From: a virus
Lineage: Duplodnaviria > Heunggongvirae > Uroviricota > Caudoviricetes
DNA: 12,568 nucleotides
Reading direction: 5' to 3' (one strand)
IMG/VR virus record: IMGVR_UViG_2740892115_000002
Of this stretch, positions 1,462 through 12,568 are shown in pieces (positions within the stretch are counted from its first letter, which is position 1; the number at the start of each line of letters is the position of its first letter). The notes beneath the pieces were generated by a model that was not told where the DNA came from, did not search any database, and was given only the letters and a program-made list of their open reading frames with translations. Position numbers and translations under genes: made by a program.

Positions 1462-1910
1462 ATATGTCCTTTTATCACTATATCAAGACAAACCATTGAT
1501 TTAATTAAATAATCTGCACTGCAAAAAGTGCCAAAAATCGCAAATTGACTACACCATTAACTACACCGTTCGGTGCACCGTATGAAACAACGTGGAACAA
1601 ATAGACACAAGAAATATACAGGCGGATCATCTTTCCAGGGGGAAGCGCACCAATTCATGAGGGGCGTTAATGTCTATATGGGGATCCCCACCTACCGGAA
1701 TTTTTTTCCGGTTAAACGTTAATCAGGCTGGTGGGCTTTACCTGTTCGGTAGGTGTTATGATTATCGTAATACCTTTCCCCCAATGGGGTAAAAGCATCA
1801 ACCGTAACGAAAGTCGTTATGGTTGCCTTGATGGTCTGCGTGGTCATTATGACCATTCAGAATTTGAAGGGTGATGTTTCCGATCTCCTCAAATTGAGGT
1901 TGCCGGAAAT

Positions 1911-2130
1911 ATCAACGGGTTAGGCCAGAGTGCAAATTTGCACTCTGGAACAATTCCAACCAGTTATCGGCATCAGGCCCACCAGCCAACGCAATTTTGA
2001 GCTTTGCTTTAATCTCAGTGAGTTACCGCGCCAATTTCCGCAGTCTGTGTAAATTGGGAAGAATCAACGGGTTAGGCTGGTTTCCCCGATGTTCGCCGCT
2101 GGCGAATTTCGAAAATATCAACCAGTTACC
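1911..2130 (+). repeat. Four direct copies of a 12-14 bp motif ATCAAC(G/C)(G/A)GTTA
   Basis: Copies at 1911-1925 (atcaacgggttaggc), 1955-1968 (tccaaccagttatc), 2063-2077 (atcaacgggttaggc), 2117-2130 (atcaaccagttacc). All in the same orientation in ORF-free DNA; the last overlaps the stop of the 93-aa ORF. Confidence 0.6.
1925..1948. promoter_or_regulatory. 24-bp perfect palindrome ccagagtgcaaa/tttgcactctgg; candidate dimeric protein binding site or recombination core
   Basis: First half ccagagtgcaaa is the exact reverse complement of second half tttgcactctgg. Directly abuts the first ATCAACGGGTTAGG repeat. No flanking T-run on either strand, so not a terminator. Confidence 0.5.
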
Positions 2131-2407
2131 GCCGTAACCGCTCCGGCTTCTTCCAGTGGTACGTAATTTTTGCTTTTTCCCTGTACGTCTGCACGCGGCG
2201 ACGGTAGGCCAGCATTTCAAGAACGCGGATCCGTATGTCGCGCATATCAACATCATTAAGCTGGATACCATCACGGCGCATCACCTCAGCAACAACACGC
2301 ACATAATTTTCAGCGGTCACGCTGTCCGGCTGTGTGGCCTGTTCGTCATGCTGCTGGCTGATTCCGGTAACGCGGCGGATTAATCCCAGTAGTTCGGCTT
2401 CTGTCAT
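2126..2407 (-). CDS. Hypothetical 93-aa protein adjacent to the cos region
   Basis: ORF with GGGGG Shine-Dalgarno-like sequence 4 nt upstream of the ATG. Basic C-terminus. The opposite-strand ORF 2156..2383 looks like a low-complexity antisense artifact. No family recognised. Confidence 0.5.
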   Translation of the reverse strand: MTEAELLGLIRRVTGISQQHDEQATQPDSVTAENYVRVVAEVMRRDGIQLNDVDMRDIRIRVLEMLAYRRRVQTYREKAKITYHWKKPERLRR

Positions 2408-2440: not shown

Positions 2441-2670
2441 CGGGTCCTTCCTGGAATTATGGCCCGTTACGGGGCGGCGACCTCGCGGTTTTTCGCTATT
2501 TATGAGATTTTTTGAGGGGGTGGTTGTTGTTTAATTGTTTGGTATATCTAATTGATAAGTAAGGTAAAAATAAAATAAATACAACAACCTTACGATGTAT
2601 TTTGATGTCATTAATGTGAAAAAATTCAATGATATCAAATGGTTTTGTAAAAACACATGGTTGTTGTATC
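2441..2670 (+). other. cos-like site A (rightward orientation): lambda-type cosN plus GGTTGTTGT repeat set
   Basis: 2462-2487 gcccgttacg|gggcggcgacct|cgcg matches the lambda cosN and 12-nt cohesive end GGGCGGCGACCT as I recall it (core 2472-2483), followed by TTTTTCGCTATTTATGA as in the lambda left end. Inward repeats GGTTGTTGT at 2522-2530 and 2659-2667, inverted ACAACAACC at 2581-2589, with AT-rich spacers. Confidence 0.6.
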
Positions 2671-2844
2671 GCGTATTTGATGGCGTAACAGAAAGTGATT
2701 TTTAACTTTACCGCTCTGTAACTACGGATTATTCCATGCTGGCACGGAGAACGGCTACGGCATGACGCCACCCAGCCTATACAGAACAGTAAAGCCGATA
2801 AATTGTTAATCACGCGCAGCAATGCGTGTGATTTTTGCACACTT

Positions 2845-3038
2845 CCGGTTAACGGGTACGATGTCCGGTTTTAGTGTCTGTTTTTTGCGCATGTCCGGTT
2901 CATAGAAAGCATGTTTTTATATTTTTCATATGGTTAACTTGCAGAGAAACCGGACATGGATCCCGGAAAATTTTCATAAATAGTGAAAACGCGCGAGGTC
3001 GCCGCCCCGTAACGGGCCATAATTCCAGGAAGGACCCG
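2845..3038 (-). other. cos-like site B (leftward orientation): lambda-type cosN plus ATGTCCGGTT repeat set
   Basis: Read on the minus strand from 3038: cosN (core 2996-3007), then CGTTTTCACTATTTATGAAAATTTTCCGG, which is nearly identical to lambda sequence just inside cosN from memory. Then ATGTCCGGTT-type repeats at 2948-2957, 2891-2900 and 2861-2870 in a direct/inverted/inverted pattern, spaced roughly 50, 105 and 135 bp from cosN, reminiscent of lambda R3/R2/R1 with an AT-rich stretch between. Confidence 0.65.
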
Positions 3039-3039
3039 T

Positions 3040-3062
3040 AAAAAAGCCGGATTTCTCCGGCC
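3040..3062 (-). terminator. Rho-independent terminator after the late-type operon
   Basis: Stem gccgga/tccggc (3047-3052 / 3057-3062) with loop tttc. On the minus strand it is followed by a 7-U run (plus-strand A-run 3040-3046). Lies immediately after the stop of the 137-aa ORF. Confidence 0.7.
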
Positions 3063-3067
3063 TTGTC

Positions 3068-3481
3068 TCAGATGGTTTTCAGTATGCGATCGATGTCGCC
3101 GTCATCGCCCTGGTTTCTGCCATCGTATGCCATGCCAGCTGATACGGCTTGCGGGCTGTGCATGTCCATAAAGTTTTCAAAGGCTGCGGTAAGCTCTGGT
3201 GCAACCTTTGGGCGCTCCTGCTCTATGGTCATGTTCAGGATTTCACGAGCATTATCGACGCTAATACATGGCACGTTTGCCATTGCACGTAACAGCGGCT
3301 GATAGTCTTTATGCTCATGAAGCGCCATAATCGCATCAGCGCGCGGCTTGTCCTGCTCTTCCAGTTTGTTTAGTTGATATACGGCCTCATAGGTTGATAA
3401 ACCTCTGTCAGCCATTGCCCGCGCTTCGGCTTTAAATTTACTCGCCAGCGGTAGCGTCATGATGCTTTCATTCGTTGCCAT
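3068..3481 (-). CDS. Hypothetical 137-aa protein, last gene of the capsid operon
   Basis: ORF 12 nt downstream of the gpD-like gene on the same strand, followed by the terminator. No family recognised. Confidence 0.55.
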   Translation of the reverse strand: MATNESIMTLPLASKFKAEARAMADRGLSTYEAVYQLNKLEEQDKPRADAIMALHEHKDYQPLLRAMANVPCISVDNAREILNMTIEQERPKVAPELTAAFENFMDMHSPQAVSAGMAYDGRNQGDDGDIDRILKTI

Positions 3482-3493
3482 CGTTCCCCCTGC

Positions 3494-3829
3494 TTATCGG
3501 GCCAGCGGCTGAACGGATACGCCGGAACCCGCAAAGGCGGCGCATTTTTTCGCATCGGTGTCGACGCTCTCAGGCCAGTTAACGGCGGCAATATTGAATA
3601 TCCCCGTCTTGTAACACTGTGCTGATTTCTGCTTTGACGTGTCCACAGGGTACGAGGTCAGATAAACAGCCTTGCCAGATTCCTTACCATCCCACGGCTT
3701 AAACTCGCCATTGTCCGCCAGCATCAGCGGGGTAAATTCCTGAATAACGCCAGCATCAGCGGCAAAATGTACCAGCGTCGTGGCGACCTGCTGACTGCCT
3801 GCAAATAACTCAATGTATGGAGTGTCCAT
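3494..3829 (-). CDS. Head decoration protein, lambda gpD-like (111 aa)
   Basis: Size and motifs resemble lambda gpD from memory: TPLMLAD, WDG, YKTGIF...WPE, KKCAAFAGSGVSV versus lambda TPLMLD, WDG, YKSGTF...WPE, KKRTAFAGTAISIV. Confidence 0.75.
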   Translation of the reverse strand: MDTPYIELFAGSQQVATTLVHFAADAGVIQEFTPLMLADNGEFKPWDGKESGKAVYLTSYPVDTSKQKSAQCYKTGIFNIAAVNWPESVDTDAKKCAAFAGSGVSVQPLAR

Positions 3830-3840
3830 AGAATCCCCCG

Positions 3841-4896
3841 TTAACCAATTTTGACGGTAACAAATTTGCGAATATCTGCCGGAACCGGCTGCGGTGCGCT
3901 GTGCGTCTGCACGTACTCAATCGCCGGATCGCCGTCCTCAATCCAGTTTTTCGGGTAAAACATGTTTTGCGTTGCGCCCGTTCTTACTGCGTCCTGATCC
4001 ATAATCGCACCATAGGCCACCAGCCCTTTATTGTTGGTGTTGCCCAGGACAAGCAAATCAGGCTCAAGGAAATATTTTTCTGTGCCGTCGCTGTCAGTGT
4101 ATTTGCCGGAATAGACGATAAGGGCAATATCGCCCAGATAGCCTTTAAAGCTCACCACTTCGCCCAGGTTTTTACAGGCCAGCTCTGCGGCGGACTCTGA
4201 ACCACGGGAAAGATCGTACAGCTCACGGAATTTTTTAAAGCTGCGTAACGTTCGCCATACCTCAGCGCCCATAATCATGACGTTTGCGGGGCAACCAGCC
4301 TGATCGGCGTATAGTTCGATATCATAGATTGGATCGTGGGTTTCTTTGTCCTGCTCTGACCATTTTTTCCCGTCGGCCTGCTCTATGATGTTTTTTTCCG
4401 GTATCTTCCAGTCGATTTCATAGCGCTCTATGCCTTCGCCTTCAATGATGTTTTTTCCGGTCGTTACCGCATTTACCGCCAGCCATTCCACGCGCGCTTT
4501 TATGGCGTTTATCTGGCGGCGCATATTGCCAGTAATCAGGCGCATACGGCGATAGGTAGGGTCGTTAAGCTGTGCCGGATCTTCTCCAGCCATGCGCATG
4601 ATGGTTTTCGTTGGATCGATTTCGTGCTTTGGCTTCATGTAGCCAGGTTTAATCGTGCTGGTTTCGTACCCTTTATCGCGCTGAACCTGGCTACCCACCA
4701 TAGGCGAACAAAACGCCGACATGGTGACTTCTTCAATGTCCAGGGTATCCAGCATGATGTTTTGCGTGCTGAATGTCGCCACGTTCGGGAAAAACAGCGT
4801 GGTAAACAGCGGACTGAATTTAAATTCCGCAATATCCCCGCGATTCAGGTACGCAAAAAGCTGGTTAGTGTTAAGTGCCATTGCTTTTACTGTCAT
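3841..4896 (-). CDS. Major capsid protein, lambda gpE-like (351 aa)
   Basis: Multiple conserved blocks shared with lambda gpE as recalled: FKFSPLF..LFF, KPGYMKPKHE, EDPAQLNDPTYRRMR, WSEQDKETHDP, RGSESAAELACKNLGEVVSFKGYLGDIALIVYSGKY, VLGNTNNKGL.AYG, YPKNWIEDGDPA, SAP. Start overlaps the upstream ORF stop (TAATG). Confidence 0.88.
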   Translation of the reverse strand: MTVKAMALNTNQLFAYLNRGDIAEFKFSPLFTTLFFPNVATFSTQNIMLDTLDIEEVTMSAFCSPMVGSQVQRDKGYETSTIKPGYMKPKHEIDPTKTIMRMAGEDPAQLNDPTYRRMRLITGNMRRQINAIKARVEWLAVNAVTTGKNIIEGEGIERYEIDWKIPEKNIIEQADGKKWSEQDKETHDPIYDIELYADQAGCPANVMIMGAEVWRTLRSFKKFRELYDLSRGSESAAELACKNLGEVVSFKGYLGDIALIVYSGKYTDSDGTEKYFLEPDLLVLGNTNNKGLVAYGAIMDQDAVRTGATQNMFYPKNWIEDGDPAIEYVQTHSAPQPVPADIRKFVTVKIG

Positions 4897-5517: not shown

Positions 5518-5940
5518 TTAAAACGGTATGTTATCCCCGTACGGATCATCATTCCCCGCCTGTTGTTTTGCCCTGTTCAGCGCGTCAGTAGCCTGGCCCT
5601 GTTGACCTTTTTTGCCGCCCAGTCGCGCCGTTCGCGCACTGATTACACTGTCTGCGATAACCTGCCAGCCCTGCCGCGTTTCTCCGTTCTGCCCAGTCCA
5701 CTGGCTGATCTGCATGTTACCCGCCACGCTCAGGAGTTCACCCTTGCGGTGCCTTTCCAGTGCTTCGGCCTGTCTGCCAAATGCCAGGACGGATAACCAC
5801 ATCGTCGCCGTTCCGTCATCTGCCTGGCTGCACGGAAGGGGGACCGCCATACGCGCCAGCGTCATCGGTGTGCCCTTGCTGGTCTGTTTTACCTGCGGGT
5901 CGTCCACCAGCCGCCCGTAAGCTGCTATCTGTGCTGTCAT
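5518..5940 (-). CDS. ssb: Single-stranded DNA-binding protein (SSB-like, 140 aa)
   Basis: OB-fold-like N-terminal region with SSB-like blocks (LSVLAFGRQAEALERHRKGELLSVAGNMQISQWTGQNGETRQGWQV), Gly/Gln-rich linker, and acidic C-terminal tail ending DDPYGDNIPF, comparable to the DDDIPF tail of E. coli SSB. Confidence 0.8.
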   Translation of the reverse strand: MTAQIAAYGRLVDDPQVKQTSKGTPMTLARMAVPLPCSQADDGTATMWLSVLAFGRQAEALERHRKGELLSVAGNMQISQWTGQNGETRQGWQVIADSVISARTARLGGKKGQQGQATDALNRAKQQAGNDDPYGDNIPF

Positions 5941-6503: not shown

Positions 6504-8258
6504 TTATAAAAACGCGTCGCACTCGTCTGTTGTTATTGCGTTAGTCTGCGTTACCCCCTTAACTTTCCGCGTAATATATTCATGTCCGTAAACTTTTGCG
6601 GCAGGCTTCATAGCCTTTCCAAAGTCATTTACGTTTAGCGGTTTGCTCCTGCCTGCGTATGCCATAAACGCCAGATAGACGCGGTAAAGGCTGTTCCTGG
6701 TCGTGTACTTCACTGAATCGCCACCGCCCCCCATCATCAGGCCGCGCGCTTCCTCCAGAAAATTCAGGAACTGGCAAAACTCAATAACCGGATCCGTCTG
6801 TTGCTTTATTGCCAGTGCTTCATCACCGTCACGCTGTTCCAGTAGTAAAGCCCGTGCCTTCTCAGGGTCGGTAAAGTTCGCCAGCAATCGGCGGATAATG
6901 ACAGGGATTTCAGCCGCGATCTTTTCCGGTAGCTCCCTGTCTTTTTCGGCCTCACTGACGATATTGTCGAAACGGAAAATCACGCGACGACGTGCCACAC
7001 CTCCGGCCCGTTCGGTGAATATCATCGGGTTATTGTTGGTCGCCAGCACCACCGCCCTGATTACAGCCGTGAAACGCTTTTCGTATTTCGGGTTAATTTC
7101 CACGGGGTCACCGCCCGTGATTTTCTTGATGCCCGTTCCTTCGCCTGTATATTTCGGCTGGTCAGCCAGGACGATAAGACGACTCCCGACAACCTGCGCA
7201 CGTCCACCAGCATCATCAAGCGATGTCATTTCAGCGCTTACCGTGTTCTGTTTCCCTGCCAGAAGGCTGGCTATGTGCGTGAATGTACTTTTACCGCTCC
7301 CGCCGTCTCCGGTGGCCTCAATAAACATCTGCCAGTCGTACCGGTTCGCCATAATCATGTACAGCGCGGCACATATACGCATCATCTTGCGCGGGTCTTT
7401 TCCGGCTGCGTGCTCAAGCCATTTATGAAAGTTTGGCGCGTTATCGCGGATGTTCTCCCCTGGTGCTGGTGGCGTGTACTCAATGCCGTTGTGCGTGGTG
7501 ATCCAGTTCTCCGGCGTGTGCGGGGAAAATCCCCCCGTTTTCAGGTCAAGCGCACCATTGGCGAACGGCAGCAAATCGCCGGACGGCTCGCCCATTGGTT
7601 CGGCAATAACTTTTAACGCTTCCACGGCGTTATTGATTACGCGCTTGCTGAAAGTGGCCCTGTGCTCTGAATAGATCGCCACCATTTCGCGGCTAAGTTC
7701 CATTGTGCTGACCGGACACCATACCCCGCCGCGCCATACGTGAACGATTTCACTTTCAGGATGTACGCAAACGCCATCAAAGCGATCGGCAAGCAGCTGC
7801 GCGCGCTCACTGTCCGCCATCTGCGAAAGTTGCGCCTTTTGCTTTACCGGAAGCTCAATGACCAGACCATCAGAAAGATTCTGGCGCTCACGGGCCAGAT
7901 ATTCGCGCCAGTTCTCCACCTTCTGACCGTGCATACCATCAGGGTAAAAATTTGCATCCTGTACGCCTGCCGCCGCCAGCTTCTGGCCAATCGCCTTTAT
8001 CATTACTGGCGCAAGATATCCGGCCCTGAATATGCGCACGGATTTTCTGCCTTCCGGCACAATTTGCAGCTTATCCAGTTCTGATAACTGCTGCTCCCCA
8101 AGCCACACAGGAGGCTCATTATCTCCGGCCATACGCGCATCATGTTCCTGCCATTGTTTCGCGTGTGCCCAGGCATCACTACCCGCAAAAATAATGACTT
8201 CTGTTCCTTTGTGTTTTATGCCGCGTGACTGCTGTTTTACGTTCGGTGCCAGTTTCAT
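6504..8258 (-). CDS. Replication initiator, P4 alpha / D5-family primase-helicase-like (584 aa)
   Basis: Walker A motif GDGGSGKST and downstream D5/P4-type helicase-like blocks. Size and position (upstream of iterons) fit a pri-rep gene. AGGGG Shine-Dalgarno-like sequence; start overlaps the upstream ORF stop (ATGA). Confidence 0.8.
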   Translation of the reverse strand: MKLAPNVKQQSRGIKHKGTEVIIFAGSDAWAHAKQWQEHDARMAGDNEPPVWLGEQQLSELDKLQIVPEGRKSVRIFRAGYLAPVMIKAIGQKLAAAGVQDANFYPDGMHGQKVENWREYLARERQNLSDGLVIELPVKQKAQLSQMADSERAQLLADRFDGVCVHPESEIVHVWRGGVWCPVSTMELSREMVAIYSEHRATFSKRVINNAVEALKVIAEPMGEPSGDLLPFANGALDLKTGGFSPHTPENWITTHNGIEYTPPAPGENIRDNAPNFHKWLEHAAGKDPRKMMRICAALYMIMANRYDWQMFIEATGDGGSGKSTFTHIASLLAGKQNTVSAEMTSLDDAGGRAQVVGSRLIVLADQPKYTGEGTGIKKITGGDPVEINPKYEKRFTAVIRAVVLATNNNPMIFTERAGGVARRRVIFRFDNIVSEAEKDRELPEKIAAEIPVIIRRLLANFTDPEKARALLLEQRDGDEALAIKQQTDPVIEFCQFLNFLEEARGLMMGGGGDSVKYTTRNSLYRVYLAFMAYAGRSKPLNVNDFGKAMKPAAKVYGHEYITRKVKGVTQTNAITTDECDAFL

Positions 8259-9229: not shown

Positions 9230-9449
9230 GTACCCCTCCGCATTTTTTTTCGTTAGAAATAAGCGTTCTTCTTTCCTGTTCATCGCTCAGGAATACGCAG
9301 ACCTCACCGCTAAGGCGTTTAAGTAAGCCGATGATTGCCCCTGATTCGCTGTCGGTCATCATGCCAGGGTAATCCTCTGCCAGTGCGCAAATAACTTCGA
9401 TTTGGTGGGCGCGTTCTGCTGCCTGTTGTAGTGTGATTTCCTGGCTCAT
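9219..9449 (-). CDS. Hypothetical 76-aa protein
   Basis: ORF whose start overlaps the stop of the upstream frame (ATGA at 9446-9449), part of the tightly coupled operon. Confidence 0.5.
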   Translation of the reverse strand: MSQEITLQQAAERAHQIEVICALAEDYPGMMTDSESGAIIGLLKRLSGEVCVFLSDEQERRTLISNEKKCGGVHVQ

Positions 9450-10732
9450 AAGCCTACCCCCTGACGAATACGGGCAGCAAATACCATCACGCAGCCAGCC
9501 GGAGATTGCTGGCGTGCTTCCTGTTCGCTGGTGGCCTCAATGGTAATCACGCGCGGTTGTGCCGTGCTCAGGGCGATAAAACGCCAGATGTATTTATTCA
9601 GGTTGTGCGAGTCCCGCCCTTGCGGGTGTGTGGTATGATTTAACATAGCTACCTCGATACTTTCGCTATCGTTGGTGGTTAGAAGCCCTGCGAGTGGTAA
9701 CGACACTTGCGGGGCTTTGCATTTATGCACCTTGATAATCTCAAGGTGTGGCCCACTATATGCTTTAGGTGTGGCCCACGTCAAGGGTTTTATTTGTGCT
9801 TTTTCTGTGTATACTGTCCCCCACCAATCCAACAGAGGAATAGAAATGGCAACGGGTACAACAAACGCAAAATCACAAGCTCTAAAGGCTCGTGTACCAC
9901 ACGAAATAGTAAACGCCATGGAATCAGTGAAAGAATCAGGCGAAAGCACATCACAATTCATCATTGCGTCAATGCAAGGCGAGATCAAACGCCGCCAGCG
10001 CCGCAAGGCCAAAGAGCAGGAGTAACCATCACCAGCGCCGTGGTGTGAGTAACTACGGCGCATTGCTATGCAGGACAACACAATGACCGATAAAGAATTG
10101 ACCAAAACATTATCACCGGCACGGAAAAGACGGCGCAGAAAGATAGAGCATGAATCAGAAAGATTCGCGCCATGTGCTTTTGCCCTTGAGCAATTCCTTA
10201 AAGAGTACAGGGAAAAGCGCTCATTGCAGGTATGGCAACGAACTGAACCTGACTGATTGCATTGCCCACCAGCCGCAAATGTGGCATTGTTGGCAATGCT
10301 CATGCGTTGGGGATAACGTGTAGCTTGTGTCGAGGGGCCACCGTAGCGGGTGGCCTTTGTTTTGCCCGTTATTCGGCAATTGTGGCGCTTCTCCACATGG
10401 TTGATATAATCCCACTGCTCAGATTCATTTTTTGCGCAGTAGGTTAATTGTTCACAAAGGCGCTCCGGCAACGGGGCGCTTTTTGTTTTTATTAGTTTGT
10501 AGAAACCTGACTCAGAGATAATGCTCATATTCTGATTGCCGTCAGGGGTGTAAGTTAAATTTACTCCCTTTTTATCATCAAACATCTGCAACGCTCTGGC
10601 GTTAACAATATTGGTTTCACTCCCGCCAGTAAGGCCGGAAATAACCGGAATAATTTCGGCAAAATTTTGCAGATTCTGTTTTTCAGGACGAACGAAGCCC
10701 CGCCCTTGTTCGGGAGAATATCCAGTATTCAT
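9446..10732 (-). CDS. Uncertain 428-aa open frame; likely a real N-terminal domain (about 115 aa from 10732) and/or a short C-terminal gene (possible start 9643, 66 aa), with the middle unlikely to be coding
   Basis: The N-terminal part has normal protein-like composition (NLTYTPDGNQNMSIISESGFYKLI, faintly like phage antirepressor N-domains). The central part is Cys/Arg/Ser-rich and antisense to two plus-strand small ORFs with good Shine-Dalgarno-like sequences. No in-frame stop until 9446. Confidence 0.3.
   Translation of the reverse strand: MNTGYSPEQGRGFVRPEKQNLQNFAEIIPVISGLTGGSETNIVNARALQMFDDKKGVNLTYTPDGNQNMSIISESGFYKLIKTKSAPLPERLCEQLTYCAKNESEQWDYINHVEKRHNCRITGKTKATRYGGPSTQATRYPQRMSIANNATFAAGGQCNQSGSVRCHTCNERFSLYSLRNCSRAKAHGANLSDSCSIFLRRLFRAGDNVLVNSLSVIVLSCIAMRRSYSHHGAGDGYSCSLALRRWRRLISPCIDAMMNCDVLSPDSFTDSMAFTISCGTRAFRACDFAFVVPVAISIPLLDWWGTVYTEKAQIKPLTWATPKAYSGPHLEIIKVHKCKAPQVSLPLAGLLTTNDSESIEVAMLNHTTHPQGRDSHNLNKYIWRFIALSTAQPRVITIEATSEQEARQQSPAGCVMVFAARIRQGVGL
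9744..9779. promoter_or_regulatory. Divergent control region with two direct 13-bp repeats AGGTGTGGCCCAC (9744-9756, 9767-9779)
   Basis: Repeats 23 bp apart in the intergenic region between the minus-strand small-ORF operon and the plus-strand RHH-like gene. A TATACT -10-like hexamer at 9811-9816 lies upstream of the plus-strand ATG at 9846. Confidence 0.5.
9846..10025 (+). CDS. Small ribbon-helix-helix-like DNA-binding protein (59 aa), candidate island repressor or regulator
   Basis: AGAGGAA Shine-Dalgarno-like sequence 5 nt upstream of the ATG. Sequence pattern of a beta-strand followed by two helices (KSQALKARVPHEIVNAMESVKE...STSQFIIASMQ) and a basic tail RRQRRKAKEQE. Family assignment is by pattern only. 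Confidence 0.5.
   Translation: MATGTTNAKSQALKARVPHEIVNAMESVKESGESTSQFIIASMQGEIKRRQRRKAKEQE
10083..10256 (+). CDS. Possible small basic protein (57 aa from the ATG at 10083; the ORF is open from 10068)
   Basis: AGGA 7 nt upstream of the ATG at 10083. Contains an RKRRRRK stretch. Weak support. Confidence 0.3.
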   Translation: MTDKELTKTLSPARKRRRRKIEHESERFAPCAFALEQFLKEYREKRSLQVWQRTEPD

Positions 10733-10784: not shown

Positions 10785-10973
10785 TTAGTGAACTGCCTCG
10801 CAGCTGTCCTTCCATGCCAGAACTTCGGATAAAGACCAGCCAACGGAACGACCGCCCAGCTTACGCCGTGATGGGAATTGTCCGGCTTTTTCCAGGCGGT
10901 ACCGACATGAGCGGCTCAGGCCTGTAAGTTGCTGACATTCTTTTTCACGTATAAAGCGATCTGTGCTTAACAC
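10785..10973 (-). CDS. alpA: AlpA-family (phage Xis/MerR-like) transcriptional regulator, 62 aa
   Basis: Matches the AlpA pattern as recalled: LTGLSRSCRYRLEKAGQFPSRRKLGGRSVGWSLSEVLAW versus AlpA TG..R.TIY......FP....LG.KSVGW...EI..W. Position next to the integrase is typical. Confidence 0.75.
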   Translation of the reverse strand: MLSTDRFIREKECQQLTGLSRSCRYRLEKAGQFPSRRKLGGRSVGWSLSEVLAWKDSCEAVH

Positions 10974-11338: not shown

Positions 11339-12568
11339 TTATATTTCTCTGGCTATTGGCAATGTGGTTACGTTTTCATGTGTTCCCGCCAGTATCCCTA
11401 ACCGCTCCGTCCACATATCCAGCGCGTCACGTTTCGCATCCAGATAACGGGAATGGTTATAGACTCGTTGCATCCCTGGCATCTGATGACCTGTAAGCTG
11501 CTCCACGACGTGAGGATCCACGCCTAAATCGTTCAGCATCGTTGTAAAGGTGCGCCGGATGTCATGCAGTGACCAGTGAGGGTGTTTTAGCCTCCTGTGC
11601 GCTAATCTGCCGTACTGCGACACGCTTGTTTCCTGTTTCACTTCCCCCAGCAATAAGCCCGTGTGCCTGTTCTGCTCCACCAGCTGCGTGACGAACGGCA
11701 GTATTGCTTCCGGTATGGGCCGGAATATTGCCACCTTCGTTTTGCTGTGTTCTTTCGGCACGGTCCAGAGCATTTCGGTAAAATCCCACTCGCTGATCTC
11801 CGATAACCTCAGTTCTACCGTCCGGCATCCGAAAACAATCAGGAGGCGGATTAGTGCGACGTAGTAAGGGGAAAATATTTTTTTGTCCAGTGCCTGCAAT
11901 AATTCGCCAAGTTCTTTGGTGCTTAAGACGCGCTCGCTTATATCCGGTTTTTTCCCAACGTCCGCCACACTCATATCATCAAGAACGTTGCTGATTGCAT
12001 AGCGCCGCCTCCGGCAGAACTTAAGCGCCTGTTTGCACGTCTGTAGCAAGAATCCGGCAGTAACAGGCGTTCGCTTTGCCACCTGGTCAAAACAGGCCAG
12101 CCAGTGCCGTAGCTCGCATTTATCCAGCGGCATAGCACCAATGTGCTGTATTACGTGATTATTAAGGCGCTTTTTCAGGGCGGCATAATCCACGCGGTTT
12201 TCCTTTGCGTACGACTCAAGCCAGTAGGTGAGCGCATCGCCAACCGTTACCGGCTTTAACGCTTCCTGTACGGTGTAATTCATTTCATGACGTGGATTTT
12301 TCCCCTCTGCCAGCCATGCGCGACACTGGGCGGCTTTTTCCCTGGCTGATTTCAGGCTCAGATCAGGATAATTTCCCAGCTTAATGCGTTCCGGTGGTGC
12401 CCCCCTTCCCGTTCCGGCCCTGTAAGTGAAATACCAGGTTAAAAGGCCACTGGTTGAATGCCTGACGCTCAGGTTTCCACCGTCATTAAGAAAGGCTGTT
12501 TTTTGGGCGGGTGTGCCGTTGATTTTCCTCAGCTGTGTATCGCTCAGTTTGTTAAGTGCTCTGCTCAT
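11339..12568 (-). CDS. int: Tyrosine recombinase, P4-type integrase (409 aa; start codon at the window edge)
   Basis: N-terminal arm-binding-like region typical of P4-family integrases (DGGNLSV...W.F.YR......R..LG.YP..SLKSAREKA...AWLAEGKNP). C-terminal catalytic region includes HDIRRTF and HxxR...Y (RVYNHSRY). The start lies on the last base of the window, so an upstream in-frame start cannot be excluded. Confidence 0.9.
   Translation of the reverse strand: MSRALNKLSDTQLRKINGTPAQKTAFLNDGGNLSVRHSTSGLLTWYFTYRAGTGRGAPPERIKLGNYPDLSLKSAREKAAQCRAWLAEGKNPRHEMNYTVQEALKPVTVGDALTYWLESYAKENRVDYAALKKRLNNHVIQHIGAMPLDKCELRHWLACFDQVAKRTPVTAGFLLQTCKQALKFCRRRRYAISNVLDDMSVADVGKKPDISERVLSTKELGELLQALDKKIFSPYYVALIRLLIVFGCRTVELRLSEISEWDFTEMLWTVPKEHSKTKVAIFRPIPEAILPFVTQLVEQNRHTGLLLGEVKQETSVSQYGRLAHRRLKHPHWSLHDIRRTFTTMLNDLGVDPHVVEQLTGHQMPGMQRVYNHSRYLDAKRDALDMWTERLGILAGTHENVTTLPIAREI

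Follow-up and report, generated by a model that had tools for sequence, protein, structure and literature searches.

The island and its two cos sites

The stretch of DNA analyzed here (IMG/VR virus record IMGVR_UViG_2740892115_000002; 12,568 nucleotides, called the window below) opens with phoQ (1-1461), after which comes an island with its genes on the minus strand, encoding an integrase (int, 11339-12568), AlpA (10785-10973), a D5-type primase (6504-8258), SSB (5518-5940), a gpE-like major capsid protein (3841-4896) and a gpD-like decoration protein (3494-3829). The presence of int, alpA, pri and capsid homologues without a terS gene, which encodes the small terminase subunit (TerS), is the context of a phage-inducible chromosomal island (PICI). 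We focus on a cassette of 598 bp (2441-3038), sandwiched between orf93 and orf137, in which two lambda-type cos sites stand head to head, each with its own set of cosB repeats, as claimed by the original prediction made from this sequence for a cos-packaged satellite. The cassette is almost certainly a PICI packaging site homologous to the cos1 and cos2 sites of the island EcCICFT073, and the copy in the window is a variant without Rpp that carries cosB regions of two helper types and lies on a segment found in both orientations, a form which would be new relative to the published cassette.

The whole window matches Escherichia coli chromosomes at the phoQ/roxA site (94% coverage and 99.4% identity in the best records), and since strain CFT073 matches it at this same site (91% coverage, 96.7% identity), the island is a close relative of EcCICFT073, the model Gram-negative PICI. 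The CFT073 island is flanked by a 31-bp direct repeat, ACTACACCATTAACTACACCGATCGTTGCAC, at positions 2048 and 13267 of the locus record used here (L003); a near-identical sequence resembling this attachment (att) core marks one island end just downstream of phoQ (1548-1578, plus strand), and the other end lies just outside the window, past int, which gives an island of about 11 kb. On one side of the cassette lies orf93 (2126-2407, minus strand; 93 aa, phrog_1561, function unknown), which was found next to the cassette in all the related islands examined, and on the other lies the conserved PICI gene orf137 (3068-3481, minus strand; 137 aa, scaffold-like), some RefSeq copies of which are named head-tail connector. 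Two cos sites located between homologues of these two genes are also what the dual-cos cassette of the EcCICFT073 family shows.

The arms of the cassette form an inverted repeat of 72 nt with 93% complementarity, comprising the left cos arm (2441-2512, plus strand) and the right cos arm (2967-3038, minus strand), and the outer 47 nt are perfect, as the original prediction had noted. The 12-nt cohesive end GGGCGGCGACCT occurs only twice in the window, at 2472-2483 (plus strand) and 2996-3007 (minus strand), and two matches were obtained in none of 200 shuffles. Alignment to the ends of the lambda genome showed that it is identical to bases 1-12 of NC_001416 in both arms, which bears out the lambda cosN sequence used in the original prediction. 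Both arms carry, where lambda has its cosQ, the cosQ-like element GGGTCCTT (-30..-21 bin, 9/10 matches), the left one reading CGGGTCCTTCC at 2441-2451, and this element agrees with the cosQ depicted in the figures of the EcCICFT073 papers. The similarity to lambda does continue inward, as predicted: it reaches about +40 from the first cohesive-end base (2512 in the left arm) and then collapses. The spacer on the cosQ side of the island arms is island-specific, unlike the cosB side, which matches phage DNA. The arms are lambda-type cosQ-cosN sequences, each facing inward onto a different putative cosB with three repeats.

In the G-type cosB of the left cos (2488-2672, plus strand), the sequence GGTTGTTGT is present at 2522-2530 (>), 2581-2589 (<) and 2659-2667 (>), and in the P-type cosB of the right cos (2861-2991, minus strand), ATGTCCGGTT is present at 2948-2957 on the minus strand (the proximal copy), with inverted copies at 2891-2900 and 2861-2870 on the plus strand. 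Both sequences were found only in the cassette, and three copies of either were obtained in none of 200 shuffles. Counted from the first cohesive-end base, the offsets are 51>, 110<, and 188> in the G set and 51>, 108<, and 138< in the P set, those of the lambda R cores being 53>, 114<, and 155>; both repeat sets are therefore located at positions like those of R3 and R2 in lambda. The claim that the right-hand repeats are spaced much like R3, R2 and R1 holds as regards the R3/R2-like offsets, but the > < > orientation pattern of lambda is that of the left set and not of the right one. A predicted site matching the consensus of integration host factor (IHF) with one mismatch is present in the G-type cosB at offset 74 (2545-2557), that of lambda being at 79, and no match within one mismatch was found in the P-type cosB.

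The interior of the cassette shows no credible gene, in agreement with what had been proposed. The only open reading frames (ORFs) above 40 aa are one of 41 aa and one of 114 aa with a GTG start (2496-2840, minus strand), and the latter was rejected as a hidden gene, having no Pfam match and overlapping phage-derived, non-coding cosB DNA. In the promoter scan, sigma-70-like sites were no commoner than in shuffled sequences, and none fell within the cassette.

Derivation of the cassette and phage origin of its cosB regions

The original prediction regarded the arrangement as undescribed. This was wrong, since Fillol-Salom et al. described both sites in EcCICFT073 and tested them genetically in 2018-2019, when each was deleted and cloned. 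EcCICFT073 "carries two cosN sequences" and its cosB regions differ from those of lambda and phi80; plasmid pET28a carrying either cos site was transferred by lambda and by phi80, the deletion of cos1 lowered the transfer of the island, and the deletion of both sites abolished it (PMC6092414). RppA (c1503, 144 aa) forms with the helper TerS a heterodimeric complex that recognizes the cosB of cos1, and is needed for efficient transfer mediated by lambda and phi80 (PMC6739421). The published support for the function of these cos sites consists of transfer assays rather than end mapping. The text of supplementary Fig. S1A assigns the two copies, cos1 being the one with GGTGACACCACCACCAC running into the start of rppA and cos2 the one with ATGTCCGGTT. 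Neither paper mentions the orientation or inversion of the cassette segment or a phage match for the cosB of cos2 (PMC6092414; PMC6739421), and an open-access search for literature explaining cos2 or describing the inversion found nothing relevant beyond these two papers.

The two islands belong to the same family and share the phoQ/roxA site, the position between orf93 and orf137, and two lambda-type cos with conserved cosQ and cosN and divergent cosB. The order in CFT073 is orf93, the cos2 arm reading rightward into a P-type cosB, rppA reading leftward, the cosB of cos1 and the cos1 arm, both reading leftward, and orf137. In the window, orf93 is followed by the left cos reading rightward into the G module (2488-2705), an rpp remnant, the P module with its cos reading leftward, and orf137. 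The cassette of EcCICFT073 contains rppA and the Rpp-specific cosB of cos1 (CACCACCACCAC) between its sites, both of which are lost from the window apart from a remnant of 22 codons; the window, unlike EcCICFT073, has a third cosB type (GGTTGTTGT), and its cos2-type module is located on the opposite side. The right cos and its cosB (2773-3038) correspond to the cos2 module of CFT073 in inverted orientation with 96% identity (98% in the case of the P-type cosB alone), although here they are on the orf137 side. No match to the CFT073 cos1 cosB was found in the window.

The remnant of rpp (2706-2777, minus strand; 72 bp) lies between the G and P modules and consists of the last 22 codons (2711-2776) and 3' flank. 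It is 85% identical to the 3' end of CFT073 rppA (blastn) and matches RppA in tblastn with E = 1.8e-5 to 8.9e-7. Searches of the window by tblastn (queries: RppA, lambda Nu1 and the TerS of two prophages), Pfam and PHROGs detected no Rpp or TerS elsewhere. The adjoining segment (2773-2860, plus strand), which corresponds to positions 3096 to 3009 of the CFT073 locus inverted (96%), is the PICI-specific inner end of the cos2-type module; it includes a further rpp 3' end, of which about 20 nt are present and which runs the other way, and a terminator-like hairpin at 2811-2836. The junction at 2773-2777 joins the two rpp 3' ends head to head, and these make a short inverted repeat (2707-2722/2778-2793) that was read directly from the sequence. 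Since positions 2409-2777 are collinear with another island (L012) at 97.8% identity, and L012 continues with a full rpp gene and cos1, the window derives from a cassette carrying G, rpp and cos1, in which a cos2-type arm and cosB, contributed by a cassette flipped the other way, took the place of the cos1 cosB and the greater part of rpp.

Both cosB regions have close counterparts in lambdoid phages. From cosN to the last GGTTGTTGT repeat, the G module shares about 95-99% identity with lambdoid prophages of the E. coli strains O121 RM8352 and E07, the match ending just ahead of the annotated terS start. The P module matches phage PhiR12_1 at about 98% identity over the stretch between cosN and the end of the third repeat, after which comes Nu1 in PhiR12_1, and a P-like cosB (89%) precedes terS in a prophage of O157:H7 EC4115. 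In these cognate phages cosB is thus directly upstream of terS, and no terS follows cosB in the island. The TerS proteins of the G and P types are about 70-74% identical overall, with nearly identical C-terminal parts of about 100 aa and N-terminal parts of about 60 aa that cannot be aligned. The N-terminal 60 or so residues of TerS form the DNA-binding domain, and the C-terminal part of lambda Nu1 is responsible for binding the large terminase subunit (TerL) and for oligomerization; in the classical case of packaging specificity studied by the Feiss laboratory, that of lambda versus phage 21, Nu1 and cosB co-vary. Each cosB type is linked to a distinct TerS DNA-binding domain, by the same modular logic as in the lambda/21 pair.

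Phages of both types are common. Among 5426 complete E. coli genomes, cosB along with the 5' end of terS (at least 80% coverage, taken as prophage context) was found in 1156 genomes (about 21%) for the P type and in 245 (about 4.5%) for the G type. Of the 11 complete genomes in which the G+P cassette occurs, at least five also contain a matching prophage, among the matches listed: the P type is co-resident in S1-CAM-02-A, NCTC9112, SCU-172 and STEC2018-607, and the G type in LH50-c.

Some related observations concern other phages and islands. The CFT073 helper "phage 4" was considered as a candidate P-type phage and rejected, since its cosB in the 2018 supplement is of another type, with GTGTCGG/CCGACAT repeats. 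The idea that the cos2 position always holds phage-identical DNA was likewise dropped, being unsupported for two further cosB types, D and E, which occupy this position in related IMG/VR islands. In one island (L015, about 11542-12420) and 18 similar IMG/VR loci, a full-length TerS homologue of 180 aa replaces rpp between the cos sites. Its N-terminus resembles the domain of the G-type TerS (…AFDKWGV.PVER.GRE.FYDV…), and the cosB preceding it carries GGTGGTGGTGG/GTTGGTGT repeats resembling GGTTGTTGT. The other position in these loci is occupied by cosB types with CAGATCC or ATGTCGG repeats, which have no close match among sequenced phages.

Inversion and distribution of the cassette

Both orientations of the cassette occur in natural isolates. 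The unit of STEC2018-607 (L001) and that of the window share 98.8% identity, with both flanks in the opposite orientation. A unit of 813 bp is 100% identical but inverted between WP4-S17-ESBL-08 (L014) and 30345_1#220 (L004), the flanks of which are direct and 99.5% and 99.8% identical, and a synthetic flipped CFT073 junction (orf93 flank, arm, cos1 cosB and rppA 5' end) was found at full length and 100% identity in 15 genomes. Among the loci examined, which form a biased sample chosen by one arm type, G lies on the orf93 side and P on the orf137 side in six loci and the flipped order is found in four; P on the orf93 side with cos1 on the other is found in 11 loci and flipped in one. The D...A and E...A orders are present in 11 and 8 loci, respectively, and were never found flipped. 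In the complete-genome set, the flipped form of the P/cos1 cassette accounts for 15 of about 97 rppA genomes. In most of the cassettes that enclose rpp or terS, this gene reads in the same direction as the capsid operon, and the gene-less G+P cassettes show a ratio of about 1:1. Because the gene-bearing cassettes are strongly skewed and the G+P ones are not, this suggests that orientation matters when rpp or terS lies inside and is neutral when no gene does, and that flipping may alter the expression of the enclosed gene.

The same data bear on whether the cassette is a non-autonomous element like a miniature inverted-repeat transposable element (MITE), with terminal inverted repeats that merely resemble cos. 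Its length of 598 bp, its terminal inverted repeats of 47-72 nt and its lack of an ORF are what such an element would show, and two megablast matches covered exactly 2441-3038 and nothing beyond. However, both of these matches proved to come from this very PICI locus, where the unit is turned around with respect to orf93 and orf137. All the full-length copies are flanked by orf93 and orf137 of related islands, none being present in a phage record; the original prediction had named a common transposable unit found outside satellites as a finding that would speak against it, and nothing of the kind was encountered. No target-site duplication is visible in the flanks (...GGTGTCGT/TAAAAAAAG...), and the arms are bona fide cosQ-cosN sequences. 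The transposon reading is effectively refuted by the constant PICI position and the lack of a target-site duplication, and we consider it extremely improbable.

As to the cause of the inversion, recombination between the arms of 47-72 bp is the plain explanation. Both orientations exist in nature, as expected of a segment inverted by a recombinase, but no dedicated invertase of the serine or tyrosine type was found beside the cassette, the sole recombinase being the island integrase 8 kb away. Another explanation, which we regard as doubtful, is that the two inverted cosN sites act as a terminase-driven switch. Double nicking would free the interior with a 5'-GGGCGGCGACCT overhang at both ends, the outer ends carrying the complement, and since the overhangs are identical at both ends, the interior could religate either way without any recombinase. 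In rpp-bearing islands, rpp would then alternate between reading with the capsid operon and reading against it, and in the Rpp-less form the only change would be in which helper packages in which direction. The cos would be both a packaging site and a recombination hotspot for retargeting, where helper cosB modules could be captured by recombination at cosN, as at the junction of E. coli 2012C-4221 (L011) described below. A switch of this kind would fit the ratio of about 1:1 observed in the Rpp-less cassettes as against the strong skew in the rpp-bearing ones. In the pair L001/L002, the variants in the outer parts of the arms go with the flanks, and the exchange is confined to an interval of 25 bp or less with cosN at its centre. 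The pinning of the crossover to these 25 bp was set aside as weak, because the two islands are only about 98% identical overall, and L004 and L014 share 47-48 bp of identical arm, which is compatible with homologous recombination.

The G+P cassette without rpp is present in 11 complete genomes (96-99% identity) and in seven IMG/VR contigs (96-100% when genomes and contigs are taken together), at two or more integration sites and on different backbones, among them islands with another integrase at the tRNA-Pro/yejM site. Three further genomes carry a G-like cosB, an rpp remnant of 206 nt and a P-type cosB. Their junction is a different one: in E. coli 2012C-4221 the P module runs into the first 27 or so nucleotides of a phage P-type terS, which is fused to rppA at a microhomology of 9 nt, TTGCCAGGC; the annotated ORF of 69 aa at 1843-2052 (minus strand) of this locus is a chimera of the first 9 or so terS codons and the C-terminal half of rppA. 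This junction records the direct capture of a helper cos-terS region by a satellite, and this type represents a second, independent route to the layout with two phage-type cos and no Rpp.

This distribution also has to be set against a plainer history, in which rpp was lost by illegitimate rearrangement, leaving the island poorly mobile or immobile and the second cos as a leftover with no role. Only a fragment of 22 codons remains of rpp; the two rpp 3' ends meeting head to head at a 5-bp overlap look illegitimate; RppA was required for efficient transfer by lambda and phi80 in the published work; and the form is a minority one. On the other hand, both arms and both cosB regions are intact and conserved at 98-100% in surrounding islands that differ in their integrases, their sites and their flanks (88-98%), and all the remaining island genes outside the cassette are intact. 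The layout with G or G-like and P cosB and a truncated rpp was reached via two different junctions, and a phage-type cos needs no Rpp in principle, plasmids carrying only cos2 having been transferred (PMC6092414). Because the rpp-less form recurs and stays conserved, which argues against simple decay, we consider this history unlikely.

Packaging, other island features and comparison with known systems

The reading that we prefer, with a probability of roughly 0.6, is that helper terminases of two specificities package the Rpp-less variant directly, one in each direction. Upon induction of a helper of either group, the N-terminal domain of its own TerS would bind the matching cosB, and the bound TerS would recruit TerL, which would nick the adjacent cosN, so that no Rpp adaptor would be needed for the helper to package island concatemers. 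Packaging would proceed rightward from the G cos (2472) or leftward from the P cos (3007) and would continue until the head is full, ending at the next cos that points the same way, after about four units of 11 kb or so per lambda-sized head. The inverted, non-matching cos, which is passed at the start, would be ignored because its cosQ is on the wrong side, and the inverted arms would also let the interior flip. Comparison with phages supports the idea of two helper terminase specificities, which was already among those of the original prediction, since the two cosB regions are almost identical to those of two distinct phage groups, which differ in the DNA-binding domain of their TerS.

Several points weigh against this direct, two-helper packaging. 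The rpp-less form is a minority (14 genomes, as against 97 in which rppA occurs with cos1), and its loss of rpp could be simple decay. The P set shows the > < < orientation, unlike lambda, and lacks the IHF match. The pairing between TerS domains and cosB types is one of genetic linkage, and it is from the sequence that we infer cutting at either cosN, the identity of the helpers and the transfer of this variant. The co-residence of matching prophages in at least five of the 11 genomes, among the matches listed, is not statistically meaningful, because P-type prophages are present in 21% of genomes. As regards cosB types D and E at the cos2 position of related IMG/VR islands, matches in sequenced phages are only partial and at 72-82%, E. 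coli prophages not having been searched. Lastly, the deletion of the P-type cos2 raised the lambda-mediated transfer of EcCICFT073 (PMC6092414), and therefore a second cos can hinder transfer instead of helping it if the helper does not match. This depression of lambda-mediated transfer by cos2 is consistent with the two sites competing under a helper that is a poor match to both.

The latter result could also mean that one or both phage-type cos sites are mainly decoys which titrate or misdirect the helper terminase and thus cut helper packaging, rather than serving the transfer of the island. The two sites of EcCICFT073 do compete, a replicating island with a perfect copy of the helper cosN-cosB would be expected to compete for terminase, and Rpp, a known interference factor, is missing from this variant. 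However, a functional phage-type cos on a concatemer is also a packaging substrate, so that decoy and transfer are not exclusive, and two different cosB types would not be needed against a single helper. We consider a predominantly decoy role quite improbable.

Other features of the island were noted in passing. The 137-aa protein encoded by orf137 has its match in phrog_53, a family of head maturation proteases, and the match is to the C-terminal (scaffold) part of that family. The island thus has a capsid module of its own (3068-4896, minus strand), yet EcCICFT073 is reported to be packaged in phage-sized heads, and the deletion of its capsid or decoration gene left interference unrelieved (PMC6092414). 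Between orf137 and the right cosQ, a hairpin, GCCGGA-GAAA-TCCGGC followed by T6 (3040-3061, minus strand), was read from the sequence and missed by the terminator scan; it is likely to be the terminator of the capsid-gene operon. An ORF of 428 aa (9446-10732, minus strand) combines an Ant/BRO-like N-terminal stretch with a C-terminal "transcriptional repressor" match (phrog_6196) and could represent either a fusion or a regulator of the accessory kind; in CFT073 this place is taken by an Icd-like gene and several small ORFs. The non-coding island end between att and orf93 (1905-2128) harbors two pairs of direct repeats, GGAA(AT/GA)ATCAACGGGTTAGGC at 1905 and 2057 and AAT(TC/AT)CAACCAGTTA at 1952 and 2114, and a perfect 24-bp palindrome, CCAGAGTGCAAATTTGCACTCTGG, at 1925-1948, all of which could be protein-binding sites. 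PADLOC gave zero defence-system matches for the unannotated island ORFs.

The cassette resembles the cos of lambda (cosQ-cosN-cosB, with R3, I1, R2, and R1) in its cohesive end, its cosQ-like element and its three repeats at lambda-like offsets. In the cognate phages, as in lambda, terS follows cosB, and cosB is paired with the N-terminal domain of TerS. It differs from lambda in that its repeats are unrelated to the CGTTTCC core, in that two inverted cos are present within about 0.5 kb, and in that no terS lies beside them in the island. Among satellites, SaPIbov5 and SaPIbov4 are of the cos type and carry the cos of their helper, SaPIbov4 having two putative cos sites (PMC6092414), and the HE-PICI 11capE has 258 bp in common with its helper's cos region at 90% identity (PMC10111431). 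These satellites are likewise packaged via the helper's own cos, including the part bound by TerS, without a terminase subunit of their own; what sets the island of the window apart from them is that a single inverted cassette, itself invertible, contains cosB regions of two different helper types.

For the question that the 2019 paper left unanswered (PMC6739421), the comparison offers an answer that can be put to the test. One position of the cassette appears to hold a cosB copied from a defined lambdoid group (P-type in CFT073, G-type in others), which could serve the TerS of that phage group directly, the other position serving the route based on Rpp or on an island TerS. The window would be the extreme case, in which the Rpp route has been exchanged for a second helper-type cosB. 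If this is true, the helper range of these virulence-associated islands would be readable from their sequence, and satellites would be able to retarget to new helpers by swapping cosB modules of about 150 bp at cosN.

The inversion polymorphism adds a feature to a well-studied model satellite that was not reported in the two EcCICFT073 papers (PMC6092414; PMC6739421). Like the Hin, Gin and Cin systems and fimS, the cassette is a short segment between inverted repeats that occurs in both orientations in natural isolates; unlike them, it has no adjacent dedicated invertase, and its repeats carry predicted terminase cleavage sites.

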